This document shows, in pieces, positions 13,325-38,971 of a stretch of DNA of 64,000 nt. Every line of letters starts with the position of its first letter. The first letter of the stretch is position 1. Origin of the DNA: Candidatus Woesearchaeota archaeon (GTDB taxonomy: Archaea > Nanobdellota > Nanobdellia > Pacearchaeales > UBA284); NCBI GenBank assembly GCA_964396475.1, contig CAYNFE010000003.1, positions 26,588 through 90,587 of the forward strand, written 5' to 3'. A program made the position numbers and the translations under genes. The notes under the pieces were generated by a model. It did no database searches. It was given only the letters and a program-made list of their open reading frames with translations, and was not told where the DNA came from.

Positions 13325-13344
13325 ATTCAGATATTTCTTTTTGA

Positions 13345-13923: not shown

Positions 13924-13962
13924 GATATATTGAATAATTATCAATTTTTAATCTTTTCCAAA

Positions 13963-14035
13963 AGCCTCAGGAGGGATCCGAACCCTCGACCTACGGTTTA
14001 CAAGACCGCCGCTCTACCAACTGAGCTACTGAGGC
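13963..14035 (-). tRNA. tRNA-Thr (anticodon TGT)
   Basis: The reverse complement is GCCTCAGTAGCTCAGTTGGTAGAGCGGCGGTCTTGTAAACCGTAGGTCGAGGGTTCGGATCCCTCCTGAGGCT. Anticodon loop CTTGTAA. Confidence 0.9.
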
Positions 14036-14071
14036 ATGATAATACAAAAGAAGAATGGTTTTTTAAGCTTT

Positions 14072-14602: not shown

Positions 14603-14613
14603 TTTATTCTTTT

Positions 14614-14931
14614 TTATTTCTCCTTAAATTGAACTCTTGATGTTCTTTTACCTTTTTTCTGAATACTGCTTTTTCCACATATCTTACATTTAAACACTAG
14701 ATTTGTTTTTTTTGTTGATTTTGTTTTTCTCTTCCATTTTCCTACAGCCGGCTTACTTCCCCATTTGCCAAGATTCCCCATACCTCTTCCTAATCCTCTT
14801 TTTTTGGCTCTTTCCATAGATCCCCTTTTTAATGCTGATCTTTGATGCCCTGCTTTAACCTGAGTAATCTTATGTTCTGTATGTTTTTTACACTTTGGAC
14901 AATATCTTTTCTTTGTTTTTGGGAATTTCAT
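14614..14931 (-). CDS. rpl44e: 50S ribosomal protein L44e (eL42)
   Basis: MKFPKTKKRYCPKCKKHTEHKITQVKAG ... CKICGKS is the four-Cys zinc-ribbon layout of L44e. Confidence 0.92.
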   Translation of the reverse strand: MKFPKTKKRYCPKCKKHTEHKITQVKAGHQRSALKRGSMERAKKRGLGRGMGNLGKWGSKPAVGKWKRKTKSTKKTNLVFKCKICGKSSIQKKGKRTSRVQFKEK

Positions 14932-21567: not shown

Positions 21568-22053
21568 CTATTTTCTTGTTAAAAGCCAAGAAATAAGCAT
21601 GGTTATTGCAACTAAAATAATGACACCAAGAACACTAGGTTGTAATAGAAATGCTTTTGGCCCAGACATGTACTTATTTATAATATCAGCAAAAACATAT
21701 ATTGCAGAAAATACAAAAATAACTATTAAAATTATTATTGTAAACCAAGCAAAACCTTTTCCTTTAAAAAAGTCTTCAATATTTCCTTTCAAAAGGCCTA
21801 CGATGAGTACAATGAAAAGTAATGAAATAATAAAAGCAGCAAACCAGGGTGTGATTACACTAACATAATCTATCGCACTAGCTGAAACAAGAAATATTAT
21901 AGCTATTGCAAAAGAAGTCAAGATATGAACAAACTTATTTTCTCCTAAAATTTGTGTCTTGCTGAGCAAAGCATAGACTACTGTAAAGACTAACAAGAAA
22001 CCAAATACTGGTATGAAAGTTGAAGCTCCACTTAAATCTAATACCCAAGCCAT
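21568..22053 (-). CDS. Polytopic membrane protein, paralog 3 of a tandem triplet
   Basis: Shares FLLVFTVVYALLSKTQILGENK with the two upstream genes. 4-5 TM helices. Confidence 0.65.
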   Translation of the reverse strand: MAWVLDLSGASTFIPVFGFLLVFTVVYALLSKTQILGENKFVHILTSFAIAIIFLVSASAIDYVSVITPWFAAFIISLLFIVLIVGLLKGNIEDFFKGKGFAWFTIIILIVIFVFSAIYVFADIINKYMSGPKAFLLQPSVLGVIILVAITMLISWLLTRK

Positions 22054-22089
22054 TTTTCTTTTTTCTTATTTTTATATTTTAAGATTAAG

Positions 22090-22614
22090 TTAAGGATTTT
22101 TAGCTTTATTTACACTAAACATTACAATTCCTATCATTGCAGCTACGACTAAAAGTAAGATAACCATAGCGCTGTTTGCCTGGAACCAGTACCAAAATCC
22201 TTCTCCTAACATCATTCTTAATAATCCTGATCTTGCAAGAACAAATAAGAATATCACTCCTCCAAAAATCCCAAATATCCATTTCCAGGTATTCTCTGTC
22301 GGTTTTAATGCCACCCCTAACAAAATAATCAATCCAAGCAAGATAGCGACACCTAGACCTAGATTTGAGAAGAAATACATGAAAAAACCACTCACATAAG
22401 GATTACTGACAGTGAAAAAACCTATAATCAAGGCTACGAGTAGATGTACCCCACGATTTTTGAAAAGATCAACTTTCTCAAGTATAGCAAAAACAACTGC
22501 AAAAACCAAGATTAATGGGAATAAGATAGTAAAAACACCAAACTGCTCCCACTGTTGTATTACTCCATAAAGATTTGTCCAAGCAAATGAACCATAGCCA
22601 TATCCATTAACCAT
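22090..22614 (-). CDS. Polytopic membrane protein, paralog 2 of a tandem triplet
   Basis: The motif PLILVFAVVFAILEKVDLFKNRG is shared with its neighbours. Confidence 0.65.
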   Translation of the reverse strand: MVNGYGYGSFAWTNLYGVIQQWEQFGVFTILFPLILVFAVVFAILEKVDLFKNRGVHLLVALIIGFFTVSNPYVSGFFMYFFSNLGLGVAILLGLIILLGVALKPTENTWKWIFGIFGGVIFLFVLARSGLLRMMLGEGFWYWFQANSAMVILLLVVAAMIGIVMFSVNKAKNP

Positions 22615-22675
22615 TTTTTCCTCTTTTATTCTGTTCTTATAAAAAAATTATGTTTTATATACTTTTCTTTTTATT

Positions 22676-23158
22676 TTACTTATTTTCTTTTTGATGGGTT
22701 GAAAGTATCAATCCTATGGCCCCACCAAAAATTGCTAAGAAAATTATTAACGCTATTATATCAGGACTCCAAGTTGCAGGAGTTATTAGATTAAAAAGTC
22801 CTGCTGCCCATGCTATTGAGGCTAGAATGGCTATACCAAATAAAATACCTAAAGCTATCTTCAAACCTTTATTCCCTGCTATACCTATAAAACCAAAAAT
22901 CAAAAAATAACCTAATAGAATGATTATCATTACAGCAAACAAAGGGATGAGTCTGATAGTAAAACCAACCAAAGACTGGGCTCCTATCCATATAAAACCA
23001 ATGACAGCAGCAACTATGATATTAGCATATCTTTTATCCTTTCCTAAAACACCTGTCTTTTCAAGAATTGCATAAACAACAACAAAAATTAACAAGAAAG
23101 GTAAAAGAATATTTATGAAAAAAGGATGCAGAAGTAAATTAGGGGTTTCTAAAGCCAT
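22676..23158 (-). CDS. Polytopic membrane protein, paralog 1 of a tandem triplet
   Basis: The motif PFLLIFVVVYAILEKTGVLGKDK is shared with its neighbours. Confidence 0.65.
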   Translation of the reverse strand: MALETPNLLLHPFFINILLPFLLIFVVVYAILEKTGVLGKDKRYANIIVAAVIGFIWIGAQSLVGFTIRLIPLFAVMIIILLGYFLIFGFIGIAGNKGLKIALGILFGIAILASIAWAAGLFNLITPATWSPDIIALIIFLAIFGGAIGLILSTHQKENK

Positions 23159-23178
23159 GATTATTTAAAAATTTGAAT

Positions 23179-23469
23179 TTATTCTACTAATTCTCCAGCC
23201 TCTTTCATTTCTTCTTCTCTTAAAGGGATAGCGCTCTTACTTATAATAACAACCTCACTTATTGCTTTAACATATTGATGTGGAATTATTAAACCACGAG
23301 CACCAGAAAGCAGCGAAGAAAGACTACTGTCCCGGGCAATCTTAACTCTCCAGCTGTCTATTTTATTTTCGACAACATTAGCTTCTTCTATAATGCCCAG
23401 ATAATCTCCAGAGTCTGTAAAAATTTTCATGCCAACCATGTCACTTATTCTCAGAATCTTCAATACCAT
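23179..23469 (-). CDS. PRC-barrel domain protein
   Basis: 96 aa. ISDMVGMKIFTDSGDYLGIIEEANVVENKIDSWRVKI is a typical PRC-barrel pattern. Confidence 0.7.
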   Translation of the reverse strand: MVLKILRISDMVGMKIFTDSGDYLGIIEEANVVENKIDSWRVKIARDSSLSSLLSGARGLIIPHQYVKAISEVVIISKSAIPLREEEMKEAGELVE

Positions 23470-23645: not shown

Positions 23646-25820
23646 ATGGTAAGAGAAGATGTTCGTAAATTTCTAAAAGAATATGAAGCTAAGATAGAAA
23701 AAGAATTAAAAGAAGAGATTTCTGAGGCTCCTGCTGCTTATTCCCGGGAATACAGGAGTTTTAGAAGAGAAACTCTTGCACCCCTCAATTCTTATGAAAG
23801 AGCCTGTAAAAGCATAGGAAGAATAATAAAACTAAAACTTTCAAAAAAAGATGAAGAGAAAACAAAGAGAGCCATAGAAAGAGCTCATCTTGATATCGAA
23901 CCAAGCGAGGCTGCCGGCCTAGCGATTTTTGCTTTAATTGCAACAATAATCCTAGCTTCCTTAATTTCCATGGTAATCTATTTTTTCACAGACACTTTTC
24001 CTTTTTTAATTTTTATACTCATATTTTTTGTATCCTTTTTCTTCTACTATTATCTAAATACTCTTCCAATGAGGATAGAACAAAAATGGCGCTTAAAAGC
24101 ATCCTCACAAATGGTTCCTTGTATCCTCTATATAATTGTTTATATGAGGCATACTTCAAATCTAGAAAGAGCTATCCATTTTGCATCCCAACACTTGCAG
24201 CCCCCTTTATCATTAGACTTAAAAAAGATTTTCTGGAATGTAGAGACTAGTAAATACAGCACAATAAAAGATGCTTTGGATGCTTATCTCGAAACATGGA
24301 GAGAGAAAAATCTTGAATTTGTAGAAGCTTTCCATCTAATAGAATCCTCTCTTTATGAACCCTCTGAAGCAAGACGTATAAAGATCCTAGAAAAATCTAT
24401 GGAAGTTATATTAGATAGAGTTTATGAAAAAATGTTGCATTACTCTCATGAAGTTAAGAGTCCTATTACAAATATCTATATGTTAGGTATAGTTCTTCCA
24501 ACTCTAGGCTTGGCTTTATTGCCTCTGGCTTCAACACTTTTGCAAGGGGCAATAAAATGGTATCATGTGGCTCTTTTATTTAACATAATTATTCCTTTCT
24601 TTGTTTTCTATATGACAAACAGTATCTTAAGTAAACGTCCTGGTGGCTTCGGGGAAACCGAACTTCTGGAAAGAAATCCTGAATACAAGACATATATATC
24701 AAGAAAACCATATGTCACAGCAGCCCTCATTACATTGCCTTTTTTCATAATAGGCTTTTTGCCTTTACTAATGCAGTATGGATTAGCCGATGTTATAGGT
24801 ATTCCTTCTGATTATAGTCTTGAACAGTTAGGGATGGGATTTTTAGGAAATCAAACACTATTCGACTTCAAAATAGATTCTGAGACTGGAGCAACAGTCG
24901 GTCCATTTGGGCCTATTGCCTTATTATTAAGTTTATTTATTCCTTTCTCAATAGCGATGTTTTTTGCAATAGCCTATAAGTTAAAAACACAAAAATTAGT
25001 AAAAACAAGAAATGAAACAAAAAGGCTTGAAAAAGAATTTGCTTCTAGTATCTTTCAGCTTGGAAACAGGCTTGCTGATGGAATTCCTGCTGAGATGGCC
25101 TTTGGAAGGGTCGCAAGATCCCTGAGAGGAACACCGACAGCCGGCTTCTTTAATCTTGTAAATAATAATATTCAACAAGCAGGGATGAGTATCAAAAGTG
25201 CTATATTTTCTGAAGGTCGTGGAGCAATAAACTATTATCCTTCTGAATTAATAAAAACTAGTATGAGAATTCTTATAGAAAGCTCAAAAAAAGGTCTTAG
25301 CGTAGCAGCAAAAGCATTGATGTCTATAAGTGATTACATTAAAAATATTCATAAAGTAAATGAAAGGCTCAAAGATCTTCTTGCTGATGTGACTACAGGG
25401 ATGAAAAGCAACATGACTTTTCTTGCTCCACTACTTGCAGCAATAGTAGTTGGATTGGCTTCAATGATAACTATGATTTTAGGTAGGTTAGAATTAATGA
25501 TATCAACAGGAGATATTACTGCTGAACAAAGTATGACAGGTTTTGGGACAGTAGGAACAGTAACAAGCATGTTCAATATAGCTAAAATGATTCCACCATA
25601 CTGGCTTCAAATCATAGTGGGAATATATATTGTTCAGATTATTTTTATCCTAACACAAACACTAGTCACAATCGAATCAGGAGAGGATAGATTAGGGGAG
25701 AAATCAGAAATAAGCAGAATGTTATTGACAGGAATGATTCTTTATACAATTGCTGCTTTTATAGCAATAATTGCTCTTGCAGTCCTCGCGATAGTATCAG
25801 TAAGTGGAATTATTGCCTAA
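23646..25820 (+). CDS. FlaJ/TadC/PilC-like polytopic membrane platform protein (T2SS-F-like domains)
   Basis: 724 aa. Two cytoplasmic helical regions are each followed by TM bundles: AIERAHLDIEPSEAAGLAIFALIA, and LEKEFASSIFQLGNRLADGIPAEMAFGRVARSL...YPSELIKTSMRILIESSKKG. Confidence 0.55.
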   Translation: MVREDVRKFLKEYEAKIEKELKEEISEAPAAYSREYRSFRRETLAPLNSYERACKSIGRIIKLKLSKKDEEKTKRAIERAHLDIEPSEAAGLAIFALIATIILASLISMVIYFFTDTFPFLIFILIFFVSFFFYYYLNTLPMRIEQKWRLKASSQMVPCILYIIVYMRHTSNLERAIHFASQHLQPPLSLDLKKIFWNVETSKYSTIKDALDAYLETWREKNLEFVEAFHLIESSLYEPSEARRIKILEKSMEVILDRVYEKMLHYSHEVKSPITNIYMLGIVLPTLGLALLPLASTLLQGAIKWYHVALLFNIIIPFFVFYMTNSILSKRPGGFGETELLERNPEYKTYISRKPYVTAALITLPFFIIGFLPLLMQYGLADVIGIPSDYSLEQLGMGFLGNQTLFDFKIDSETGATVGPFGPIALLLSLFIPFSIAMFFAIAYKLKTQKLVKTRNETKRLEKEFASSIFQLGNRLADGIPAEMAFGRVARSLRGTPTAGFFNLVNNNIQQAGMSIKSAIFSEGRGAINYYPSELIKTSMRILIESSKKGLSVAAKALMSISDYIKNIHKVNERLKDLLADVTTGMKSNMTFLAPLLAAIVVGLASMITMILGRLELMISTGDITAEQSMTGFGTVGTVTSMFNIAKMIPPYWLQIIVGIYIVQIIFILTQTLVTIESGEDRLGEKSEISRMLLTGMILYTIAAFIAIIALAVLAIVSVSGIIA

Positions 25821-26616
25821 TTTCAACCTCATGTCTCTGTGGAATCTTTTCCATTTCTATTTGAACAGGGATAAGAATATGATACTCTTGATTTAAGTAC
25901 GGAAGAAGTTGTGGAACATCTCTACCAAGAATATGATTCATATAAGAAGAATAAAAACTCTCACCAAAAATATTATGAAAATACTGTAAAATATCAAGAT
26001 TGGAAACCTTATCTATAAATTCCTCTGAATCTCTATAATCTGTCCTAAAAACAGCAGCTTCATTCCAATTATATTCAAAACCTAAATTCTTTTCTATAGA
26101 ATCAGGAAGTGGTTTGCTTAAAGGATTATTGATATGATTCAAAAGAACAAATAAAGGAAAATTAGCCTCATAAAAATTATAATCAGAACATTTTACCTCT
26201 ATTTTTGATATTTTTCTTTCATTATCCGTTGCAACACTAAATACAGACATTCCATTTTTATCTGTCATCGTATTATAAGGATAATAAAAAACATTTGAAC
26301 TTGAACCAATAAAATAATCCTCTCTTATGCTCTTATTCTCCTCTTTTAACTCTACCAATGCCCCCCTCAATGGCATTTTTGAATATTTATCTATTACCTG
26401 AATTCGAATAATAGGAACATCATTTTTAGAAAAATTTACCCTTCTAATTATCTCATTAAGATCTTCTCTGGAAATCCTCTGTTCTAGTTTTCCTTCCATC
26501 ATCTTTCTATCTTCTATCCCTTCTCCATAATTTTGTGCTAGAGTAAGAGATGGAGTCATTGCTAAAAAAAACGAAAATAATAGAGTTGGAAACTTCCTCA
26601 TTTTTTCCCTAGCCAT
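25810..26616 (-). CDS. Secreted hypothetical protein
   Basis: Signal peptide MRKFPTLLFSFFLAMTPSLTLAQ. Possible beta-sandwich segment IRIQVIDKYSKMPLRGALVELKE. Confidence 0.55.
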   Translation of the reverse strand: MAREKMRKFPTLLFSFFLAMTPSLTLAQNYGEGIEDRKMMEGKLEQRISREDLNEIIRRVNFSKNDVPIIRIQVIDKYSKMPLRGALVELKEENKSIREDYFIGSSSNVFYYPYNTMTDKNGMSVFSVATDNERKISKIEVKCSDYNFYEANFPLFVLLNHINNPLSKPLPDSIEKNLGFEYNWNEAAVFRTDYRDSEEFIDKVSNLDILQYFHNIFGESFYSSYMNHILGRDVPQLLPYLNQEYHILIPVQIEMEKIPQRHEVEIRQ

Positions 26617-26656
26617 TCAGATTAAATTTTTAAAGTTAAAATACTTTTTGTTTTTG

Positions 26657-26833
26657 ATGAAAAAAGGTAAAAGAAACATTAAAAATAAAAAAGGTCTAGT
26701 CTGGTCAGAAATAAGTTGGTGGGTTATGGGTTTAGTTGTTCTTGCTCTTGTAATAATCTTAATTATTATTTTACAAAAAAGAGGACTTGATATTTTAGAA
26801 CAGATTAAAACCTTTCTAAGGTTCGGGAGATAA
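26657..26833 (+). CDS. Small pilin-like protein (class III signal peptide)
   Basis: MKKGKRNIKNKKG/LVWSEISWWVMGLVVLALVIILIIIL. The ATG at 26657 is preferred over the TTG at 26648. Confidence 0.5.
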   Translation: MKKGKRNIKNKKGLVWSEISWWVMGLVVLALVIILIIILQKRGLDILEQIKTFLRFGR

Positions 26834-26838
26834 AAAAG

Positions 26839-27426
26839 ATGGAAATATGGCAGATAATCAGAGCAATAATTGCTGTGGTAGTTATCTTCGTTGTAATACT
26901 GATAGCTACAGGTTTTTTTAGGCCCCTCTATGAAGAATTGAGCAGGAAACCATTGACGACACAGGAGGAACAGCAAAACACAAATAATTTTGATGCTCTG
27001 ATAAGCAACATAGAAAAATGTTATATTATTGAAGATACTGAATGTGTATGTGATGGTCTTCCTAATTATCCAGGAAGTTTTGCCATAGGTTCAAAACTTA
27101 TTTTTGATGATTTGCCAGATAATAAAATACATGTTAATCTAACTCATAAGGATAAAACTTACAAAGAACACACCCTACAAGGTATAAAAATTGCTGGTAT
27201 TTTTTATGATACAAAAGTAGAAACCCCTTACAGAATTAAAAAAACTCTGGATTTTAGTAAAGAGCCTCCCTTGTTTAAACAAGAAGGGTCTAGAAAAGGA
27301 ATTTTATGGTGGACTAAGGATATATTAATAATAAGCTCCTTTATTTACAAAAAGGAAGATGGGATTTATTTTATTGTAGGATATGAAAAACCACCATTAG
27401 TGCAATTCAGGAAATGTGGAGAATAA
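26839..27426 (+). CDS. N-terminally anchored extracellular protein in the pilin cluster
   Basis: N-terminal TM helix IIRAIIAVVVIFVVILIATGFF, with no clear K-G cleavage motif. Cys pair CYIIEDTECVC. Confidence 0.55.
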   Translation: MEIWQIIRAIIAVVVIFVVILIATGFFRPLYEELSRKPLTTQEEQQNTNNFDALISNIEKCYIIEDTECVCDGLPNYPGSFAIGSKLIFDDLPDNKIHVNLTHKDKTYKEHTLQGIKIAGIFYDTKVETPYRIKKTLDFSKEPPLFKQEGSRKGILWWTKDILIISSFIYKKEDGIYFIVGYEKPPLVQFRKCGE

Positions 27427-27492
27427 AAAAGAAAACTTTTAAAAATAATTCATACTTTCTAAAATAGAATAAAAGAGGTAAATAAAATAAAA

Positions 27493-27852
27493 ATGGATAA
27501 GAAAGGTGTTGAATTGAATATTGCTACAATAGTTGTAGTAATTCTTGCTGTTCTTGTTCTAGTAATTCTTGCTTTGTATTTCACAGGAGGAATGAAAGCA
27601 CTTTGGGGACAAATTACACCTGTGCCAGGAGCATGGGACATAACCCAAGGAACTCAAGCTAGAGCAGCATGCACATTACTCTGTAGTGCACAGGATAAAA
27701 CAGCATTCTGTGAATATAGTGTATTGATAGACTTAAAAGATGAACAAGGGAATACTATAGCTACTGAAGAAAGAAAGTGTTGGGAAGATCCTATTAATGC
27801 AGACAAAGAATCAGAGTGTATATCTGCTGGTTTCAACGAAAACGCCTGTTAA
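27493..27852 (+). CDS. Archaeal type IV pilin-like protein (candidate major pilin) with a Cys-rich C-terminal domain
   Basis: MDKKG/VELNIATIVVVILAVLVLVILALYF, with its own TATA-like and AAGAGG signals upstream. Six Cys in the C-terminal half. Confidence 0.7.
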   Translation: MDKKGVELNIATIVVVILAVLVLVILALYFTGGMKALWGQITPVPGAWDITQGTQARAACTLLCSAQDKTAFCEYSVLIDLKDEQGNTIATEERKCWEDPINADKESECISAGFNENAC

Positions 27853-27858
27853 CAGAAA

Positions 27859-28035
27859 ATGAATAAGAAAGGTGTAGAACTTTCTATCAATACTATAATT
27901 ATAGTAATTCTTGCTGTCATTGCTCTCATTGTAATTATATTTATTTTCTCTGGAGCAATGAGGGGTTTTGCTTCTGACTTATTTACAAAATTAAAGAATG
28001 CTTTGGGATTATGGAATGCATCCCAGATTCAATAA
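27859..28035 (+). CDS. Short type IV pilin-like protein (58 aa), paralog of the preceding gene
   Basis: Not in the ORF track because it is under 60 aa. The translation is MNKKGVELSINTIIIVILAVIALIVIIFIFSGAMRGFASDLFTKLKNALGLWNASQIQ. The first ~25 codons are near-identical to 27493. Confidence 0.6.
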   Translation: MNKKGVELSINTIIIVILAVIALIVIIFIFSGAMRGFASDLFTKLKNALGLWNASQIQ

Positions 28036-28103
28036 CATTAAAATCAAATCACAAAATCACAGTTTAACCAAAATTTTAAATATTCTTTTTATATTATTCT
28101 TCC

Positions 28104-29186
28104 ATGCAGAATAAAAGAGGTCTACTTTTACTTAAACAAATAATTGAATTAATAATTGCAGTTATAGTTATTCTAATCCTTATTTATATGAGTGTTGTAT
28201 TATTTAGGACATATTTCGGAAGACAGGAAGATCTTCAAGCGCAGGGAACTTTAGATAGGATAGTACAAAAACTAGAAAGTTTAGAAGAAGCTGAAACAAA
28301 TTCATACACTTTACTCTCTCCTGCTGGATGGCACATAGTGGCTTTTGACGCAGAACATAATTTCAATGGAAAATTTGAAAAACCAGGAAGTATGTTCCAA
28401 CAAAATATTTTATGCTTATGTGAAAAAAAATGTGATACTAAGTTCTGCAGAGCAATTTCTTTGCCCTTAAAACAGCAGGATAAACTAGTTAACATTGAAA
28501 TAAAGATTGTAGATATCTGGCTAAGTCATAAGATAGATTATTATGAGGTGACTAAAATAGAACCCTCAGTAATAGCTAAAGAATTAAGTGGAAAAGAACA
28601 GACAGAAACAGGTTTTGCTTATGACAAAATGAGCACAGAGAACTGGAATAATGAGATTCCAAGAATAACCTATCAGTATTATGAGCAGTATCAATTAAAT
28701 AGATATGTAGCAAGCAAAGAAGAATTTGAAAAAATTGTTAGAGCAATGATAATCCAAGAATCTAGTACTGTAGAAGATGCTATAGGTTGTGATGGTGAAG
28801 TGGGATTAATGCAAATAATGCCGCAGACAGCCATAGGCCTTGGTCTTAATGTTCCTGACTATGGCCTAGAAGATATATCAAAGATAGCGCCATGTACTAA
28901 TGAAAAAAGAACCTCAGTATCAAAATGCAATATAGTACATCCTGAAAATTGCAACAAGGAAGAAGATGAAAGATTTGATCCAATAAAGAATATTGATGCA
29001 GGAACAAGATATCTATCTGAAAGGATAGCTGAATTCCAAAATCAATGGCTAGGAATAGCTGCATATAACGCTGGTTCTGGGGGTGTAAGAAAAAATTGCC
29101 AGCCTCTTACGATAACTGCTTGTCCTTCAACATTTTCAGGCAGACAATATGTAGAACTAGTTAAAGCAAAAATGGAGTTGATATAA
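28104..29186 (+). CDS. Pilin-signal protein fused to a lytic transglycosylase (SLT, GH23-like) domain
   Basis: N-terminus MQNKRG/LLLLKQIIELIIAVIVILILIYM. C-terminal SLT motifs IIQESS (catalytic Glu-Ser), GLMQIMP and AAYNAGSGGV at nt ~28720-29110. Confidence 0.8.
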   Translation: MQNKRGLLLLKQIIELIIAVIVILILIYMSVVLFRTYFGRQEDLQAQGTLDRIVQKLESLEEAETNSYTLLSPAGWHIVAFDAEHNFNGKFEKPGSMFQQNILCLCEKKCDTKFCRAISLPLKQQDKLVNIEIKIVDIWLSHKIDYYEVTKIEPSVIAKELSGKEQTETGFAYDKMSTENWNNEIPRITYQYYEQYQLNRYVASKEEFEKIVRAMIIQESSTVEDAIGCDGEVGLMQIMPQTAIGLGLNVPDYGLEDISKIAPCTNEKRTSVSKCNIVHPENCNKEEDERFDPIKNIDAGTRYLSERIAEFQNQWLGIAAYNAGSGGVRKNCQPLTITACPSTFSGRQYVELVKAKMELI

Positions 29187-29188
29187 AG

Positions 29189-29308
29189 ATGAAAAATAAA
29201 AAGGGAATCACCTCAGAAATCTTAATCAAATTACTAATACTAATAATCATGTTTGCTATTATTGGTGCAGCATTACTTTATTTATTAAAAAGATATAATG
29301 TGATATAA
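29189..29308 (+). CDS. Mini pilin-like peptide (39 aa)
   Basis: Not in the ORF track. The translation is MKNKKG/ITSEILIKLLILIIMFAIIGAALLYLLKRYNVI. It starts 3 nt after the SLT gene stop. Confidence 0.4.
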   Translation: MKNKKGITSEILIKLLILIIMFAIIGAALLYLLKRYNVI

Positions 29309-29340
29309 AAATTTATTAAGATGAATTCAATTAAAATAAG

Positions 29341-30240
29341 ATGAAAAATAAAAAAGGGGTATTGGTTCAGAACATAATCATAGGAATAATAATTCTTGTA
29401 ATAAGTGCTGCAATAATCTTTTTCTTTCTAAGGGCTTTTCCTTATAGAGAAACAATTGACAAAGAAGCATGCCACCAGTCTGTGATTTTAAGAAGTCAAC
29501 AAATAGCTGGATTACAACCAGGACAACTTGCTGGTATTCCATTAAACTGTAAAACTCAAGAAGTGATAATAAGTTCACCAGATGAAAATTTTATCAAAAG
29601 TGAAATAGCTAACCAGATGTATGACTGTTGGTGGATGTTAGGAGAGGGTAAAATGCAGTTCTGGTCTGAAAGCGCTTGGAGAACTATAGGTGTTCCAGGA
29701 GCAGGCACAGCTAAAACTCATTGCAATATCTGTTCTATAATAAGGTTTGAGGATCAAGCAAAAGACAAGCAGATAGACCTCTTAAGTTATTTAGATGAAA
29801 CAAAGATACCAACAAAAAATATTACTTATATAGAGTATTTCATGAATCCTGGAACAAAATTACCAGCAGAACTTAAGGTTGATAAGCTGGACACGAACAA
29901 GGATTATGCTTTAATATATATGGGAATAAAAGGTGCTGAAGTAAAAGAAACAATCATAAATTTCATAGGGCTTAGCGGGGGCTCAGCTTTTGCAACCGGA
30001 GCAATACTAAAAATTGGTTTAGGGGTTGGCTTAAAAACGGCACTAAAAGCAGCAGGATGGGTAGGATTAATTATAGGTGTCTTAGAAGCTGCTGGCCAGA
30101 TAACAACCTTCTGGACACATGCGCATGCTTCAGCAATACACTGTGATGGTGAAACAGGAGGATGTTACGCACTAATTCTCATACCTTTAGAGGCATCAGG
30201 AATATCTGAGCAGTGTCAGAACATAGAAAGCATTCCTTAA
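29341..30240 (+). CDS. Pilin-signal protein with a Cys-rich domain and a C-terminal Gly-zipper hydrophobic region
   Basis: MKNKKG/VLVQNIIIGIIILVISAAIIFFFL. Later GLSGGSAFATGAILKIGLGVGLKTALKAAGWVGLIIGVLEAAG. Confidence 0.65.
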   Translation: MKNKKGVLVQNIIIGIIILVISAAIIFFFLRAFPYRETIDKEACHQSVILRSQQIAGLQPGQLAGIPLNCKTQEVIISSPDENFIKSEIANQMYDCWWMLGEGKMQFWSESAWRTIGVPGAGTAKTHCNICSIIRFEDQAKDKQIDLLSYLDETKIPTKNITYIEYFMNPGTKLPAELKVDKLDTNKDYALIYMGIKGAEVKETIINFIGLSGGSAFATGAILKIGLGVGLKTALKAAGWVGLIIGVLEAAGQITTFWTHAHASAIHCDGETGGCYALILIPLEASGISEQCQNIESIP

Positions 30241-30313
30241 ATTTTCTTAGATCTTATTTCCTTAGATCTTATTTTTTGATAAGATTTATTAATATTATTT
30301 CTTTAGCTCATCT

Positions 30314-30661
30314 ATGCTTAAAGATAAAAGAGGTATTGAGCTTGGTTGGGAATTTATTTTTACTCTTCTGTTTGTCGTAGCAATAATAATAATAATCAGT
30401 TTCTGGATAGGCAGCCAAGCTTCAGGAAGTGCGATGAAAAAACAGATTCTTGCAAAAGAAATCTGTCTGCTCGTGACATCAGCAGAACCTGGAACTACTA
30501 TAATGATTGAGACTGAAAAGAAAATGAGCATAATAAGACAGAATACTGGAATAGTTGTTAAAGAGAGTGAGCTTGACAGAGGATATTTTTATGATTGTTA
30601 TTTCAAAGATAATATTGATTTTTCAAAAAAAGATGATATCATGATTATAGAAATAAGATAA
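30314..30661 (+). CDS. Pilin-like protein (class III signal peptide)
   Basis: MLKDKRG/IELGWEFIFTLLFVVAIIIIISFWI. Confidence 0.6.
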   Translation: MLKDKRGIELGWEFIFTLLFVVAIIIIISFWIGSQASGSAMKKQILAKEICLLVTSAEPGTTIMIETEKKMSIIRQNTGIVVKESELDRGYFYDCYFKDNIDFSKKDDIMIIEIR

Positions 30662-30687
30662 AAAAAACTGAATAAAAAAACGAAAAT

Positions 30688-31146
30688 ATGATGAAAAAAA
30701 CAAACAAGAAAGCCCAGTTAGGACATGCAACAACCTGGCTCCATAAATTTTTTATACTTGTTTTAGTCATTGGAGGAATAATAGCTATAGTAACTATGCA
30801 TTATTCTAAGCAATACGATGTTCGTGATGTTGAAGCTAGTGTAGTTGCAAGAAACATAGTGGAATGCGTGGCTCCTGGAGGCATTCTAAAAGAATTTAAT
30901 GAAGAAACAATAAGAAACTGTTTTCCTTTCAATGAGGAAGAGATTTATATGAATATAACCTTAGAAAATGATAATTTGGTTTTTGGAAATGATTTTCTTG
31001 CTACACTCTGTAAAGCAGAGGGAAAAAAAGTAAAAGTAGAATACTACCCAGCATGTTTAGAAGAAAGATATTATGTTCTTGAAAATGATGAAGGAAAAAC
31101 CCTAAATTTATTTATAGCAATCAAAAAAATTGGGAAAAATCTATAA
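30688..31146 (+). CDS. Pilin-like protein (KKAQ-type class III signal)
   Basis: MMKKTNKKAQLGHATTWLHKFFILVLVIGGIIAIV. Confidence 0.55.
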   Translation: MMKKTNKKAQLGHATTWLHKFFILVLVIGGIIAIVTMHYSKQYDVRDVEASVVARNIVECVAPGGILKEFNEETIRNCFPFNEEEIYMNITLENDNLVFGNDFLATLCKAEGKKVKVEYYPACLEERYYVLENDEGKTLNLFIAIKKIGKNL

Positions 31147-31148
31147 AA

Positions 31149-31592
31149 ATGCAAACAATAATAAAAAATAAAAAAGCACAGGCTGGAGAATTACTTCAAG
31201 ATACAGTAGGATTAGTAATTATAGCTCTCTTATTAATTATCTTTCTTGTCATATCTAGCAGTTTATGGGGCTTTCCAAAAAAAGAATTAGAGACTCTAGC
31301 CACAGAGCACTCTATTCATAACCAAGAACATCTCTCTCTTCAAGCATGGCTACAAAAGAGTATTGAGATAGAAATCGATGGAGAAAATCAAAAGATAACT
31401 ATGGCTGACTTGATAAGACTTTCAAAAATAAATCCATATTACAAGGAAATTCTGGACCAGGAAGCAAGTTATGCATTTGACATCTATAATTATGAATTTG
31501 AAACGAGCAATAAAAAAGAAATAGAAATGGGTTCGTCATTTTATATTCCATCTAATGAAACTATCAAAGTTAATTTAGAAATTAAGAAATAA
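31149..31592 (+). CDS. Pilin-like protein (KKAQ-type class III signal)
   Basis: MQTIIKNKKAQAGELLQDTVGLVIIALLLIIFLVI. It starts 3 nt after the previous stop. Confidence 0.55.
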   Translation: MQTIIKNKKAQAGELLQDTVGLVIIALLLIIFLVISSSLWGFPKKELETLATEHSIHNQEHLSLQAWLQKSIEIEIDGENQKITMADLIRLSKINPYYKEILDQEASYAFDIYNYEFETSNKKEIEMGSSFYIPSNETIKVNLEIKK

Positions 31593-31621
31593 ATAGAAAA
31601 TAAAATAGCAAGAAAAATAAA

Positions 31622-32419
31622 ATGATAAATATGAAAGGAAAAAGAGCAGGAATTTTTGCAGCAGGATTGGTTTTAGGAATGATTATTTTTATAGGGTTAT
31701 CTTGGCATTCATTCTCAACAACTAACAGAAATCTAAATATGGGAATAATTAAAGCACTCTCTTCAACCCAATACAAAGACATGGAAAACAAAGTCTCTTT
31801 TTATTTAGATGAATCAGCAAAATTAGCATCATCACAAGCTTTTTATGAAATTGCAAAAAACAGCGCAGTAAACAAAGAAAGTATGTGTAATGTCATAAAT
31901 GATAATATAATATGGAATTCGAACTGTAGACCAGAACAGCAGTTCATAGAATCTATGTTTATTGAAAAATATAATCAAAGCTTTTATGGTTTTCTGGAAA
32001 ATTATCTAGAAGAAGATCTCAAAGCAGAGTATATTCATATTATAAAAGAAGGAAAAATAGAGTCAAGCGCAGAGCAAAAAACTTTTGTTAGCCAGGAAGG
32101 GACTTCTCTCTCAACTTACAAATTAAGTTATGTTCTTGACCCATCCATAACTCACAATCTTAATGAACAAGATATCTATCTAGGAGATTTTGAATTTATA
32201 TATCAAGAAACAGACTCTGTCATACTAAAATGTAAAGATAATGATGATGTTGTTTCTTGTGTTAAAAAAAATCTAAACCTAGCAAGATGGACAACAAAAG
32301 TGAAAAAAGAAGCTTCTTATTTGATTTTTGAACTTGAAACAAAAAAATCTTTCTTTTTCGAAGATCCTGAAGAAAAATTTGAACCTGTCGTGTTAAATTT
32401 TGCAATGAATGCAGAATAG
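31622..32419 (+). CDS. Pilin-like or pilus-associated protein
   Basis: MINMKGKRAG/IFAAGLVLGMIIFIGLSW followed by a ~235-aa extracellular domain. Confidence 0.55.
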   Translation: MINMKGKRAGIFAAGLVLGMIIFIGLSWHSFSTTNRNLNMGIIKALSSTQYKDMENKVSFYLDESAKLASSQAFYEIAKNSAVNKESMCNVINDNIIWNSNCRPEQQFIESMFIEKYNQSFYGFLENYLEEDLKAEYIHIIKEGKIESSAEQKTFVSQEGTSLSTYKLSYVLDPSITHNLNEQDIYLGDFEFIYQETDSVILKCKDNDDVVSCVKKNLNLARWTTKVKKEASYLIFELETKKSFFFEDPEEKFEPVVLNFAMNAE

Positions 32420-32473: not shown

Positions 32474-33445
32474 ATGATTAGAGCTACTTATCAACAGCTA
32501 ATAGAAAGGATAGTACATCTTTCTGGTTTAAATAAAGAGGAAATTGAAAGAAGAGTTGAAGCAAAAAAAGCCAAGCTTTCTGGACTAATCAGCACTCTTG
32601 GAGCAGCGCAGGTCGTGGCTGCTGAATTAGGCATTTCATTTGAAAATCAAAAATTCAAAGTGACTGACATGTTAATAGGGATGAAAAAAATTCATGTTAT
32701 AGGAAAAGTAATGGAAGTTTATCCAGTAAGAAAGTACAGAAGAGCAGGACATGAAGGGGAGATAGGTTCTTTCTTACTAGCAGATAATACTTCTAGCATT
32801 CGTGTAGTGCTATGGGATACTCATCATATTGATAAAATAAAAAATAATACAATAAAAAAAGATTCTGTGATAGAAATAAAAAATGCTGATGTCAGAGGAA
32901 CTACAATGAGAGAGCTACATCTAGGATCTAATTCAACTATTGAAATAAGTGATAAAGAGATAAAGGCTGTCAAGATAATAAAAGAGCCCTTAATTACCAA
33001 AAAAATATCTGAACTTAAGTCAGGAGAGAGAGTGAATATAAGAGGTAATATCCTTCAAATATTCCAACCAAATTTTTTCATGACCTGTCCTGAGTGTGGT
33101 ATGAAGGTTTCTTATGAAGGAGATAAAGCAATGTGTATAAAACATAATTCTGTCGTACCGAAAAAAAGAGCCATAATAAGTATTATTATTGATGACGGAA
33201 GTGATAGCATGAGGGCTATTGCTTTTAATGAGACAATAACTAATTTATTTAAAATAAAAGAAGAGGAAATAGAAAATCTCCAGAACTCATCTTTCATGCT
33301 AGATAAAAAACAAGAGCTTTTAGGAGCAGAGATGACTTTTTCAGGAAGAGCAAGAAGAAATGTCATGTTCAACAGAAATGAATTTGTGATAAATAGTATA
33401 GAAAAAGTCACTCCAGAAGATATTATTCAGGAATTAAGTAGATAA
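32474..33445 (+). CDS. rpa: Replication protein A (RPA) / ssDNA-binding protein with OB folds and a zinc ribbon
   Basis: N-terminal LSGLISTLGAAQVVAAELGI helix typical of archaeal RPA. OB-fold segments. Zn motif CPECGMKV...CIKH. Confidence 0.8.
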   Translation: MIRATYQQLIERIVHLSGLNKEEIERRVEAKKAKLSGLISTLGAAQVVAAELGISFENQKFKVTDMLIGMKKIHVIGKVMEVYPVRKYRRAGHEGEIGSFLLADNTSSIRVVLWDTHHIDKIKNNTIKKDSVIEIKNADVRGTTMRELHLGSNSTIEISDKEIKAVKIIKEPLITKKISELKSGERVNIRGNILQIFQPNFFMTCPECGMKVSYEGDKAMCIKHNSVVPKKRAIISIIIDDGSDSMRAIAFNETITNLFKIKEEEIENLQNSSFMLDKKQELLGAEMTFSGRARRNVMFNRNEFVINSIEKVTPEDIIQELSR

Positions 33446-33511
33446 AAGTATAGTTCTAAACATATAATCTAACTGAATAATCTTTATAAAACTCTCGTCC
33501 CTTGAAACACT

Positions 33512-34477
33512 ATGGCTAAGGACAAGAATAAGAAAGAGTTGAAACTGACAGATTTGCCTGGCATTGGCCAGACAACAGCATCTAAACTAGAATCAGCTGG
33601 CTATGGAGATTTAATGTCAATAGCAGTCATGACTCCTAATGACTTAAGTTCTCTAGCTGACATTAGTGGAGCAACAGCAAGGAAAGCAATAGTTGCAGCT
33701 AGAAAAATGTTAAAGCTAGGATTTGAAGATGCAACTGAATACTTGAAAAAGAGGGAAGAAATTTTCAAAATCACTACAGGCAGCAAAAATTTTAATGCTC
33801 TTTTAGGAGGGGGTATAGAGACTAGGGCAATAACTGAAACTTTTGGTGCTTATGGCTCAGGAAAAAGTCAACTAGCTCATGTAATTGCTGTAACAACCCA
33901 ACTTCCTAAAGAAAAAGGTGGCGCTGGGGCAAAGGTAGTCTGGATTGACACTGAAGGAACATTCAGGCCAGAAAGAATCAAGCAGATAGCTAAAGCTCAA
34001 GGCATGGACCCAATGAAAGTACTAAAGAATATTTTTGTTGCTCGTGCATTCAATAGTGATCATCAGATTCTTCTTGTAGATAGGGTTGTTGATTTAATAA
34101 ATAGGGGGGAACCAATAAGACTCTTAATTGTTGATTCTATCACAGCACACTTTAGAGCAGAATTTACAGGACGTGGAATGTTAGCAGACAGACAACAGAG
34201 GATTAACAAACATCTTCATAGCTTGATGAGGATTGCCGAAGCAAACAATCTTGCTATTTATATAACAAATCAAGTTATGTCACGTCCAGATGTTTTATTC
34301 GGAGACCCAACACAAGCTATCGGCGGTCATATAGTTGGTCACGCCTCAACATATAGAATCTATTTGAGAAGAGGAAGAAAAGACTCAAGAGTAGCTAAAA
34401 TGATTGACTCCCCAAACTTACCAGAATCTGAATGTGTCTTTTTTATAACAGCTGATGGATTAAAAGACGAGATTTAA
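33512..34477 (+). CDS. radA: DNA repair and recombination protein RadA
   Basis: HhH N-domain LTDLPGIGQTTASKL. Walker A GAYGSGKSQLAH. LLIVDSITAHFR. IYITNQV. Confidence 0.96.
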   Translation: MAKDKNKKELKLTDLPGIGQTTASKLESAGYGDLMSIAVMTPNDLSSLADISGATARKAIVAARKMLKLGFEDATEYLKKREEIFKITTGSKNFNALLGGGIETRAITETFGAYGSGKSQLAHVIAVTTQLPKEKGGAGAKVVWIDTEGTFRPERIKQIAKAQGMDPMKVLKNIFVARAFNSDHQILLVDRVVDLINRGEPIRLLIVDSITAHFRAEFTGRGMLADRQQRINKHLHSLMRIAEANNLAIYITNQVMSRPDVLFGDPTQAIGGHIVGHASTYRIYLRRGRKDSRVAKMIDSPNLPESECVFFITADGLKDEI

Positions 34478-34493: not shown

Positions 34494-35258
34494 TTATTTT
34501 CTTTTTCTCTTTATTGTTTTTGCTTTTGCTATTTTTGGTTTAACAGGCTTTGCCTTAGCTATCTTCTTCAATTTTCTCATTTCCTCACTTAGTTCTCTTA
34601 ATTCCTTAACTGACCCTGTTAAAGGCTTGACAACTTTTCCAAAAGCTCCTTCTAGAGCTTGTATTTCTGTCCCTAATGATTTTACATCTCTGCCATACTC
34701 TTGCATCTTTCCTAGGGTAGCTGATTGAAGTTTATCAAAAGATCTCTCTAATCTCTTTATCCGTTCATCCAAACTTTTTATTCTTGATTCAATATACCTT
34801 TTAAATTCTATAATATCACCAGCCTTCTTTGTAAACTCTTCCCATTTCTCTCTTATAATTTCCTCAGCAAGTTCTTCCATTGATTCTGTTGATGCTGGTT
34901 CATAAGTAGAAGGATAAGCATAAGGATAGCCTTCACTCTCAGGAGCAGATACAGCAGCAGGAGCGGCTTGAGCAGGAGCATAATAAGCTTCTTCAGGTTG
35001 TTCTTGTTGAGACATTATAGAAGGAGTCATCTCTTCTTCAGCTGTTTCAGCAGATTCATAAGGACTAGGAGCATAAACTTCAGACTCCATACCTGCAGTT
35101 TCAGCTAATTCCATCTTAATCTTGGCTTGATTCATAGCATCATTTATCTCGGTAGGAGTGTAACCCTCTTCTCTCAGATAACGAATTATATCAGCATCTG
35201 TATACCCTTGCTTGCTTAATTTTAAAATATCATTAACAGATATTTTTTTCTTTGGCAT
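34494..35258 (-). CDS. Coiled-coil protein with a small N-terminal helical domain, an acidic linker and a basic tail (possibly FlaC-like accessory)
   Basis: ISVNDILKLSKQGYTDADIIRYLREEGYTPTEINDAMNQA, then an E/A/P-rich linker, then heptad-rich IESRIKSLDERIKRLERSFDKLQ, then a K-rich tail. Confidence 0.6.
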   Translation of the reverse strand: MPKKKISVNDILKLSKQGYTDADIIRYLREEGYTPTEINDAMNQAKIKMELAETAGMESEVYAPSPYESAETAEEEMTPSIMSQQEQPEEAYYAPAQAAPAAVSAPESEGYPYAYPSTYEPASTESMEELAEEIIREKWEEFTKKAGDIIEFKRYIESRIKSLDERIKRLERSFDKLQSATLGKMQEYGRDVKSLGTEIQALEGAFGKVVKPLTGSVKELRELSEEMRKLKKIAKAKPVKPKIAKAKTIKRKRK

Positions 35259-35330
35259 CTTTTCTTGTTCTCTTCTCTTTTCTATATTTATTCTTATTCT
35301 TTATTGTTTTTAAATTTTTTATTTTTTTCT

Positions 35331-35726
35331 TTATTCTTCATCAATTTCTATTATGCCGTCTCTTTTATCTTTAACAGCTTTTTTGACTATTCTTTTTACA
35401 TCATCCATAGTGGCAAATTCAAGAGGCTCAAACATTTTCACATATCTTTCTAAAACCTTTATCTCTTCTTTTCGTGCAAATTCAGAACTTTCTCGAACAA
35501 TATGCTCGACTGTTTCTTTTAGTCTGTCAATTTCATTATGAACATTCCTCATATCCTCTTTCATCACGACCATTTCTTTATTCAGTTTTTCACTCTGCTT
35601 TAATATTGTCTGGCTCAAAGTAAGTAGTCTTTCCTTGATTTGTGTCGTTCTCTCCTCTATATCATTAACTCTTATACTAAACTCTGAAAGAAGAGCAGAA
35701 ACAGCGCCAAGATCTCTTTCATCCAT
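35331..35726 (-). CDS. Coiled-coil protein (possibly FlaC-like accessory)
   Basis: 131 aa and almost entirely heptad-like: IEERTTQIKERLLTLSQTILKQSEKLNKEMVVMKEDMRNVHNEIDRLKETVEHI. Confidence 0.6.
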   Translation of the reverse strand: MDERDLGAVSALLSEFSIRVNDIEERTTQIKERLLTLSQTILKQSEKLNKEMVVMKEDMRNVHNEIDRLKETVEHIVRESSEFARKEEIKVLERYVKMFEPLEFATMDDVKRIVKKAVKDKRDGIIEIDEE

Positions 35727-38239: not shown

Positions 38240-38971
38240 ATGAAAAAGTATGATGAATTAATAAAAGAAATATTACTTATCATTGTTGCATCATTATTTC
38301 TTGGTATTATCCTTACTCTAGACATCTCTTTGCCAGTAATAAGTTTTGAGCCTAGTGAATTTGGTTTAATGTTCTTATTTTCTATAATTATGTTATCTGT
38401 TTTCGTACTTGCTCAAAAATTTACAGCCTTTAGACTTGACTGTAAAATAAAAACCAAATTCCTTAGTTTCAGAAGATACTGGTTCCAACCTCCAACAGAA
38501 GGTCAGAAAGCAGAACTTCCTTTTGATTTTCCTGCCTGGCTTGCTTTGCCATTAATCTTAGCGCTAATAACAAATGGCTTCATAAGATGGTTAGCTATTC
38601 TAGATTTTGATATTAAGCCTAAAGCCTCTCGTTTAAGAAGAAGATGGCAAGAATTAAGTGAAGAGGATGTAGGAAGAATAGCCATATCAGGTCCTGTTGC
38701 AGTTCTTATTCTTGGTTTGATAGTAAGAATAGCTGGCTTTAATGAATTTGCAATCTTATGCGCCTGGCTTTCTTTCCTTGCTTTAATTCCAATAGGTCAG
38801 GGCTTTAAGATAATGAATACAGTAAGAATATCTTGGTTCTTTGCCTTTATCTTTTCTATATTCATATTACTATTGATGAATTTAACAGCAAACACTTTCG
38901 CTACGATAATAGTGGCCTTACTCATAACTGCAATAATAACAATAATTTATTATTCAACATATGAAAGATAA
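38240..38971 (+). CDS. Polytopic membrane protein, possibly a catalytically degenerate M50 (site-2 protease)-like fold
   Basis: AISGPVAVLILGLIV and LALIPIGQGFKIM parallel the GxGxxxN and NxxPxxxLDGG blocks of the true M50 at 42967-44373. The HExxH position reads AQKFT. Confidence 0.5.
   Translation: MKKYDELIKEILLIIVASLFLGIILTLDISLPVISFEPSEFGLMFLFSIIMLSVFVLAQKFTAFRLDCKIKTKFLSFRRYWFQPPTEGQKAELPFDFPAWLALPLILALITNGFIRWLAILDFDIKPKASRLRRRWQELSEEDVGRIAISGPVAVLILGLIVRIAGFNEFAILCAWLSFLALIPIGQGFKIMNTVRISWFFAFIFSIFILLLMNLTANTFATIIVALLITAIITIIYYSTYER

Follow-up and report, generated by a model that had tools for sequence, protein, structure and literature searches.

Modular pilins, in which a small carrier bears an effector domain, are established in bacteria (Raynaud et al., 2021; PMC8179133). 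In the archaeal lineages Pacearchaeota and Woesearchaeota, proteins with SLT (lytic transglycosylase) domains have been described, and an attack on bacterial walls proposed for them, in work published from 2013 to 2022 (PMC8204110, citing Rinke 2013 and Castelle 2015; PMC9723730; PMC10936187); in these three reports the proteins in question are large, and pili are not mentioned. That archaeal peptidoglycan hydrolases can kill bacteria has been demonstrated for secreted enzymes of halophiles (Strock et al., 2025; PMC12352652). Here we analyze a gene that combines a pilin-type N-terminus with an SLT domain and lies in a 64,000-nucleotide stretch of archaeal DNA (contig CAYNFE010000003.1 of assembly GCA_964396475.1; the whole stretch is called the window below). 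The gene occupies positions 28104–29186 of the forward (+) strand and encodes 360 amino acids (aa), comprising a leader (MQNKRG), a long N-terminal helix, a beta-rich N-terminal module (N-module) and a C-terminal SLT/GH23 lytic transglycosylase domain, as read from Pfam, an alignment to Slt70, a structural model, Foldseek and homologues. We favor, with somewhat more confidence than doubt, the reading that it encodes a modular prepilin-like subunit of a type IV filament system in a Pacearchaeota (DPANN) archaeon, a tiny organism of the symbiotic type; the presence of other wall-cutting enzymes in the same slot in related archaea suggests that the pilus apparatus carries enzymes with which bacterial cells could be breached.

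The window protein shares with PilB (vWA module) and PilC (lectin module) of Streptococcus sanguinis a class III-type leader, a small carrier and a grafted C-terminal effector; as in the bacterial modular pilins, many alternative effectors occur on the carrier, the gene stands among those of minor pilins and a position at the filament tip is proposed (Raynaud et al., 2021; PMC8179133). The bacterial proteins were surveyed by the bacterial prepilin signature IPR012902, whereas the protein described here is archaeal, bears a predicted muralytic effector rather than an adhesin and has a carrier that matched no pilin profile or fold in our searches. The large SLT proteins of family fam00969, which reach ~3,000 aa (Castelle et al., 2021, PMC8204110; PMC9723730; PMC10936187), come from the same lineages, belong to the same SLT family and are likewise inferred to bind or degrade bacterial peptidoglycan, as part of a presumed episymbiotic or predatory lifestyle. 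By contrast with the window protein, they are giant, lack a pilin-type carrier (as in P0278, of 2,555 aa, and P0283, of 2,912 aa with M23 and SLT domains) and are not linked to pilus genes by those papers; at 360 aa and with another architecture, the prepilin-like protein fixed in a type IV filament cluster is not of the fam00969 type.

Two further archaeal systems offer partial parallels. Halogranum Woldo and Danwoldo, with M23 and glucosaminidase domains that archaea took over from bacteria, are likewise directed against bacterial walls, and differ from the window protein in being soluble, Tat- or Sec-secreted and equipped with peptidoglycan-binding domains (Strock et al., 2025; PMC12352652). 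The survey in that study, in which peptidoglycan hydrolase homologues were reported as prominent in Nanoarchaeota, required peptidoglycan-binding domains and took in predicted Sec/Tat signals only, and no mention of pilin-type carriers or SLT was found in its text (PMC12352652). The Sulfolobus bindosome shows that archaea can also export and assemble non-pilin proteins bearing a prepilin-type signal, by means of a type IV-like system dedicated to the task; its subunits, however, are solute-binding proteins of ATP-binding cassette transporters of Crenarchaeota, not enzymes acting on another cell, and its locus is organized differently (PMC3047682). A modular protein of prepilin type that occurs in archaea with interchangeable muralytic domains combines two known kinds of protein; for the combination itself, a full-text search of open-access papers and bioRxiv returned no description of a pilin–muralytic fusion in DPANN archaea or Pacearchaeota. 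The preliminary description of this DNA knew of no described archaeal pilus with a murein-cleaving subunit; we likewise found no description of the pilin-type fusion and its cluster position, but DPANN SLT proteins and the idea of wall attack are both already published.

The C-terminal part of the protein, residues ~200–360 (28701–29183, +), is a complete family-1 lytic transglycosylase domain of predicted activity, catalytic glutamate included, and is under strong constraint. Pfam matched it to SLT (PF01464) with E = 2.5e-22 and 79.1 bits against a curated cutoff of 21.3, in two stretches parted by an insertion. A phmmer alignment paired Glu219-Ser220 (nucleotides 28758–28763; the Glu219 codon is 28758–28760) with the catalytic Glu478-Ser479 of E. 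coli Slt70 (1QSA), and the family-1 consensus elements G-L-M-Q, A-Y-N-x-G and a C-terminal tyrosine are all present: E219-S220 lies within IIQESS, GLMQIMP spans aa 234–240, AAYNAGSGGV spans aa 319–328 and the tyrosine is Y349. An AlphaFold2 model of the full-length protein (mean predicted local distance difference test score, pLDDT, of 89.3; 39-sequence alignment) has a lysozyme-like all-helical catalytic fold, with the helical SLT domain starting at residue 163. Foldseek backed this fold: the top 30 PDB matches of the full-length model are P. aeruginosa Slt, Slt70, LtgA, MltC, MltD, MltE and Cj0843 (best E 2.5e-5, probability 1.00), and a GH23 chitinase (Ralstonia A-471, 3w6e and related entries) stands further down the list at E ~1e-3. 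The preliminary description had quoted the N-terminus MQNKRG/LLLLKQIIELIIAVIVILILIYM and the three SLT motifs from this open reading frame (ORF), and all were found as quoted; its SLT assignment was borne out by the profile score, by the structural matches to Slt70 and MltE and by the alignment of the catalytic glutamate.

Full-length homologues of the 360-aa protein number 13, and conservation was counted over 40 representatives that carry both N-module and SLT and are 24–74% identical to the window protein. E219, G234, Q237 and Y349 are present in all 40 of these, Y321 in 39 and S220 and G324 in 38 each. At the level of sequence, such invariance of catalytic and motif residues indicates selection for catalysis. 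The Cys-rich insertion CTNEKRTSVSKCNIVHPENC (aa 261–280), to which the preliminary description had drawn attention, is present and splits the SLT match; it is, however, part of a lineage-specific insertion (aa ~246–288), and we rejected it as a defining feature of the family since C261 and C273 are not conserved among the 40 representatives, whereas C332 and C340 are.

Residues 1–160 (28104–28583, +) are a conserved carrier module made up of a basic leader ending in KRG, a ~56-residue helix and a small, probably Cys-stabilized beta domain. Motif and alignment define a putative class III (prepilin-type) leader, MQNKRG (28104–28121, +), with predicted cleavage after Gly6 (MQNKRG/LLLLKQIIELIIAVIVILILIYM, the slash marking the junction here and below). 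In the alignment of the 40 proteins, the -1 column is G or A in 35 and the -2 column K or R in 33, with five gaps in each column. Across all 68 N-module proteins that we collected, 59 have [KR][GA] and a hydrophobic N-terminus, and leaders of anything between 3 and 21 aa precede a junction that stays fixed, which is the pattern expected for a cleaved leader. Behind the leader, a hydrophobic stretch of ~28 residues runs into the continuous helix, whose first half is hydrophobic; in the model, this extended helix (residues 4–59) is followed by a beta-sheet (strands within 65–150), a layout like that of pilins, although neither Foldseek with the isolated N-module nor a profile search of the PDB found a pilin. 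Conserved features of the module are QAxGTL, W76 and three cysteines, of which C104 and C115 are found in 40/40 and C106 in 39/40 of the representatives with SLT.

The new result of this analysis is that residues 1–160 form a separate module, which occurs alone or fused to different muralytic domains in the same cluster slot. In more distant clusters, the slot after the Flp-like gene described below is held by a 153–185-aa protein homologous to residues ~3–152 of the SLT protein; BLASTP with these stand-alone modules gave E = 1.9e-21 in related locus L007, 2.6e-9 in L008 and 7e-11 in L009, and L015 is a further case. An exhaustive profile search of 1.84 billion representatives, pooled with the earlier homologues and classified with local hidden Markov models, divided the 68 N-module proteins into 40 with SLT, 20 with the module alone and 8 with another C-terminus. 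Pfam identified Glucosaminidase (PF01832, GH73) behind the module in P0172 (6e-16) and P0175 (2.5e-20), the 3D domain (PF06725), which we take to be an MltA/RlpA-type catalytic fold, in P0198 (9e-10), P0220 and P0235, and a weak Lysozyme_like match in P0251. In P0243, from a Candidatus Nanoarchaeia metagenome-assembled genome, N-module and SLT are joined by Amidase_2 (PF01510, 5e-30), an N-acetylmuramic acid (MurNAc)-L-Ala amidase. Four unrelated peptidoglycan-specific modules (SLT, GH73 glucosaminidase, MltA-type 3D and amidase) are thus found on one carrier, and the variants with alternative effectors do not depart from this slot in the cluster (L010, L011, L018, L019). The N-module proteins share two properties with modular pilins: the carrier occurs without an effector, and the effector is exchangeable.

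Synteny around the SLT gene is kept at 69%, 44% and 41% protein identity. The pilin–SLT fusion for which the preliminary description had proposed a survey has 40 representatives and a gene order that persists down to 41% identity. A pattern-based scan of genome contigs found 6 loci, a number that is no measure of prevalence. In the loci of P0015 (L004–L006), we observed a 252-aa short form in which a prepilin-like leader and helix are joined almost directly to SLT, without the beta part of the N-module; this gene lies in a smaller, similar cluster, directly after a 62-aa gene with a weak Flp1_like match. The short form suggests a second, independent attachment of SLT to a pilin-type helix.

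The SLT gene belongs to a run of 11 consecutive + strand genes (26648–32419), 10 of which have a basic leader ending in [KR][GA] and then ~20 hydrophobic residues, an arrangement kept in the orthologous loci L001–L003 and one that agrees with the likeness between the SLT gene and its pilin-like neighbors remarked on earlier. A strict prepilin pattern matched 8 of the window's 222 ATG-initiated ORFs, 6 of them inside this 5.8-kb run. The run opens with a small prepilin-like gene of 58–61 aa (26648–26833, +; ...NKKG/LVWSEISWWVMGLVVLALVIIL; orthologues in L002, L003 and L004), a 195-aa gene with an N-terminal hydrophobic helix and no basic [KR][GA] leader (26839–27426, +) and a 119-aa prepilin-like gene (27493–27852, +; MDKKG/VELNIATIVVVILAV). 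Next comes a 58-aa Flp-like prepilin (27859–28035, +; MNKKG/VELSINTIIIVILAV), by pattern and position a candidate major pilin, which gave the only prepilin-type profile match among the proteins of this run (NCBIfam prepilin domain, E = 0.075). The Flp-like gene is always immediately upstream of the module-bearing gene, with the same position in L011, L018 and L019; its positional counterpart in L004–L006 has a weak PF16982 Flp1_like match and resembles the 58-aa protein only weakly in BLASTP (E = 0.003). The SLT gene is immediately followed by a conserved 39-aa ORF absent from the original ORF list (29189–29308, +; MKNKKG/ITSEILIKLLILIIMFAIIGAALLYLLKRYNVI; counterparts of 33–55 aa in L001, L002, L003, L008 and L010). 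Five further prepilin-like genes, recognized by the pattern, complete the run on the + strand: 299 aa (29341–30240; MKNKKG/VLVQNIIIGIIILV; 49% identity to a 283-aa gene of L010, E = 2e-91), 115 aa (30314–30661; MLKDKRG/IELGWEFIFTLLFVVAIIII), 152 aa (30688–31146; ...TNKKA/QLGHATTWLHKFFILVLVIGG), 147 aa (31149–31592; ...KNKKA/QAGELLQDTVGLVIIALLL) and 265 aa (31622–32419; ...MKGKRA/GIFAAGLVLGMIIFIGLSW). The family of the 195-aa neighbor was considered as a paralogue of the N-module on account of a weak profile similarity; hhalign gave 73% probability over 51 columns, confined to the helix, which is too little to call.

Machinery for a type IV filament is encoded on both sides of this run. The 766-aa gene at 35902–38202 (+), 6.7 kb from the prepilin-like genes, encodes a type IV filament assembly ATPase (PF00437, E = 7e-11; syntenic in L001), with PDB matches to archaeal GspE (2OAP, 8e-26), CpaF (6e-20) and FlaI (4e-15). 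On the other side, at 23646–25820 (+), lies the gene for a 724-aa polytopic membrane protein, a probable TadB/TadC/PilC-like platform protein to judge from its neighborhood and from source names: among its >4,800 homologues in Pacearchaeota and Nanoarchaeota, several bear the Joint Genome Institute name 'Flp pilus assembly protein TadB', and in L008 and L019 the gene stands directly downstream of the T2SSE ATPase. The 724-aa protein had no Pfam (T2SSF) match and no PDB sequence match. Co-encoding with filament machinery extends, then, to an ATPase and a platform-like protein in the window, and to a Peptidase_A24 prepilin peptidase only inside the related cluster L009.

Tad/Flp pili and the archaeal Epd-type pili are built from a Flp major pilin, minor pilins of the TadE, TadF and TadG type, a CpaF ATPase, TadB and TadC platforms and a TadV/EppA peptidase. 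The locus described here resembles them in its ~58-aa Flp-like candidate major pilin, larger prepilin-like genes, CpaF/afGspE-like ATPase and TadB-named platform protein, and in the Peptidase_A24 of the related locus. It differs in that no significant Tad or Epd profile was found on its pilin-like genes and in having a single 724-aa platform without a T2SSF Pfam match. To our knowledge, no minor subunit with enzymatic activity has been described for Tad/Flp or Epd systems.

The claim in the preliminary description that the rest of the window is unambiguously archaeal was borne out. RadA, an RPA-like protein, L10P with RL10P_insert (the archaeal/eukaryal insertion), L1, Spt5-NGN, FtsZ and SRP54/FtsY are encoded across it, and homologues carry the source names Candidatus Pacearchaeota, Woesearchaeota or Nanoarchaeia, one of them, P0003, being encoded on a complete chromosome of 710,724 bp (CP061211.1). 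G+C content is ~27–39% throughout, with no compositional break at the locus of the SLT gene. We rejected a bacterial mis-bin of the contig, since archaeal core genes were found all along the window.

At 1637–9418 (-), the window also holds a giant ORF of 2,593 aa with a Sec-like N-terminus and a Peptidase_M23 domain at aa 1908–2005 (E = 1.6e-23). It is the orthologue of P0283, with 39% identity over 2,155 aa, and exactly the SLT segment of P0283 is absent from it. We take it to be a probable member of the 'large extracellular SLT protein' group of Castelle et al. (2021), here without SLT. With SLT on a separate prepilin-like protein, the predicted peptide- and glycan-cutting activities of this genome fall on two surface proteins. 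Directly upstream of the giant gene, at 9435–11300 (-), lies a gene for a 621-aa protein without a Pfam match, the N-terminus of which, MQHKKA/QVTIFIIIAIVVVAAALF, is a textbook case of the archaeal prepilin type; the pilin cluster of L008 includes a gene of equal length (621 aa) on the opposite strand (12958–14823).

Foreign, that is bacterial, peptidoglycan is the most plausible substrate of the SLT domain. The swapping of unrelated muralytic modules on one carrier points to peptidoglycan and is hard to explain otherwise, and the four kinds of module found in relatives lend support to the earlier suggestion that the enzyme acts on a bacterial wall. Lytic transglycosylases of bacterial machines, such as BfpH of the bundle-forming pilus, VirB1 of type IV secretion, EtgA of type III secretion and FlgJ/SltF of flagella, open the producer's own sacculus; they are family-1 SLT enzymes encoded in a filament or secretion locus, as here, and are, as far as is known, Sec-exported or lipoproteins rather than pilin fusions. 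An enzyme that likewise opened the archaeon's own envelope for assembly of the filament machine would fit its place in such a locus, and the best NCBIfam match of the 360-aa protein is in fact a flagellar-assembly lytic transglycosylase, though far under its cutoff (40.8 against 234 bits). We nevertheless consider such self-remodeling very improbable: close relatives (L007, L008, L009 and L015) keep the same cluster without any enzyme, which is therefore not needed as an assembly factor, the Pacearchaeota producer is without known murein, and no wall-synthesis genes were present among those scanned in the 64-kb window. Indeed, we know of no archaeon that makes peptidoglycan. We give similarly little credence to a non-bacterial target, whether chitin, pseudomurein, a glycan of archaea or some other polymer containing N-acetylglucosamine (GlcNAc). 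GH23 does include the Ralstonia chitinase seen among the Foldseek matches; the top structural and sequence matches, however, are all murein lytic transglycosylases, the domains borne by this carrier in relatives include a GH73 glucosaminidase, an MltA-type 3D domain and the MurNAc-L-alanine amidase, the last of which is peptidoglycan-specific, and an M23 endopeptidase is encoded in the window too. Pseudomurein, moreover, has beta-1,3 linkages to N-acetyltalosaminuronic acid and is not known to be cut by lysozyme-type enzymes.

Several observations weigh against a pilus subunit. Pfam and NCBIfam contained no pilin family at E<=1 for the 360-aa protein and returned no pilin families for any of its cluster neighbors; Foldseek gave no fold match to pilins, with no pilin or significant PDB match for the isolated N-module (best E = 2.3), whose separate model (pLDDT 72) is weaker than the same region in full length; and the N-module sequence profile drew only a chance-level DNA polymerase match from the PDB (E = 0.15). 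Since no pilin profile or solved pilin matches the N-module, 'pilin' describes layout and context here, not fold membership. Furthermore, a bulky 200-aa effector need not fit in a filament, tblastn with the L009 Peptidase_A24 found no prepilin peptidase in the 64-kb window, the genes for RPA and RadA and two small genes lie between the pilin genes and the ATPase, and in archaea class III signals are found as well on surface proteins that form no pilus, the Sulfolobus bindosome being an example (PMC3047682). The bindosome precedent, the bulk of the effector and the missing pilin fold match favor the chief alternative, in which the enzyme is anchored at the surface via the prepilin route, with its leader cleaved or uncleaved, and never enters an extended pilus; staying in the membrane, a short pseudopilus or a bindosome-like assembly, it would show its muralytic domain at the cell surface and act at the zone of cell-cell contact or digest free wall fragments for amino sugars. 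DPANN archaea are thought to attach directly to hosts (PMC8204110), and nutrient scavenging would suit their reduced metabolism (PMC9723730). We regard this alternative as rather unlikely in view of the gene's fixed position in a cluster that also holds some nine further prepilin-like genes besides the Flp-like one for the candidate major pilin, and of the enzyme-free carrier in the same slot, which is what one expects of a structural minor subunit, although a pseudopilus would still be compatible with it. It is much less probable still that the protein is an ordinary Sec-secreted or signal-anchored enzyme and its prepilin resemblance an accident. A basic n-region and a hydrophobic stretch are also the general layout of Sec signals and anchors, and the window's MacB permease fits the strict prepilin-type pattern too; against this stand the ~28-residue hydrophobic stretch, which is prolonged as a 56-residue helix and is not followed by an A-x-A site, the conservation of the [KR][GA] junction while leader length varies, the sharing of the motif by 10 of 11 adjacent genes and the conserved position in a type IV filament cluster.

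For the modular prepilin-like subunit that we favor, we infer the following course of action, in which the tip position is drawn by analogy with bacterial modular pilins. A prepilin peptidase of the PibD/EppA type (Peptidase_A24) would remove the leader after Gly6, and the hydrophobic helix would allow the protein to be pulled out of the membrane by ATPase and platform and built into a filament or short pseudopilus. Given its bulky effector, the protein would most probably sit at the tip with other minor pilins, as proposed for the bacterial proteins (PMC8179133). There the SLT domain could attack a bacterium to which the archaeon attaches, cleaving the MurNAc-beta-1,4-GlcNAc bonds of its sacculus, probably in concert with the M23 endopeptidase of the giant protein at the surface, and the wall might be opened locally for tight attachment, membrane access or scavenging of wall material. 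A bolder version, which we put forward tentatively as a possibility, is that Pacearchaeota/Woesearchaeota-type DPANN archaea breach the walls of cells of another domain with their type IV pilus: a dedicated minor-pilin carrier at the tip would bear interchangeable peptidoglycan-cleaving enzymes tuned to the wall of each lineage's bacterial host and work with the giant M23 protein, while pilus retraction or contact would drill the sacculus for episymbiosis or predation. If true, no archaeal pilus armed with an enzyme would have been known before, and there would be direct molecular evidence that these lineages have bacterial hosts.

Pacearchaeota and Woesearchaeota are very abundant and uncultivated, and bacterial attack by them has so far been suggested from scattered SLT-domain genes. 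The present results tie wall-degrading enzymes to a specific, conserved cell-surface machine, on one carrier of which peptidoglycan-cutting modules have been swapped repeatedly in evolution, and give a handle on whether these DPANN lineages interact with bacteria. They also widen the concept of the modular pilin, which now takes in archaea and effectors that are enzymes acting across domains. N-module and effector type together could serve as a sequence marker to predict which DPANN lineages interact with bacteria, and possibly the wall types involved; a small soluble domain, a defined predicted cleavage site and a localizable epitope are concrete experimental handles.

The remaining neighbors of the cluster show varying degrees of conservation. 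Beside the platform gene, a conserved four-gene set (21568–23469, -) encodes a 96-aa PRC-barrel protein (PF05239, E = 2e-4) and three paralogous-looking membrane proteins of ~160–174 aa with no family match. The same set is found in L001, L002, L003, L007, L008, L018 and L019, so that its synteny with the pilus cluster holds for all the related loci examined, and may be an uncharacterized part of the filament machine. Between platform and pilin genes, at 25810–26616 (-), lies the gene for a 268-aa protein with an N-terminal signal-like sequence and no family match, whose slot varies: it is taken by a gene for 251 aa in L001 and by one for 363 aa in L002, and L003 has none. The recombination genes for the RPA-like protein and RadA (32474–34477, +), unexpected company for a pilus cluster, lie between its pilin genes and the ATPase gene and keep this linkage in all the related loci (L001, L003, L007, L008, L018 and L019). 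After the ATPase, a 243-aa polytopic membrane protein (38240–38971, +), also present in L001, was considered as a divergent prepilin peptidase, but it is unlike the L009 Peptidase_A24, with no obvious GxGD motif and no Pfam match. Lastly, genes for a 254-aa (low-complexity, coiled-coil) and a 131-aa (coiled-coil) protein, with no family match, lie divergently upstream of the T2SSE ATPase at 34494–35726 (-); genes of similar size hold the same position in L001, L003, L008 and L019, and their products are possible ATPase accessory factors.

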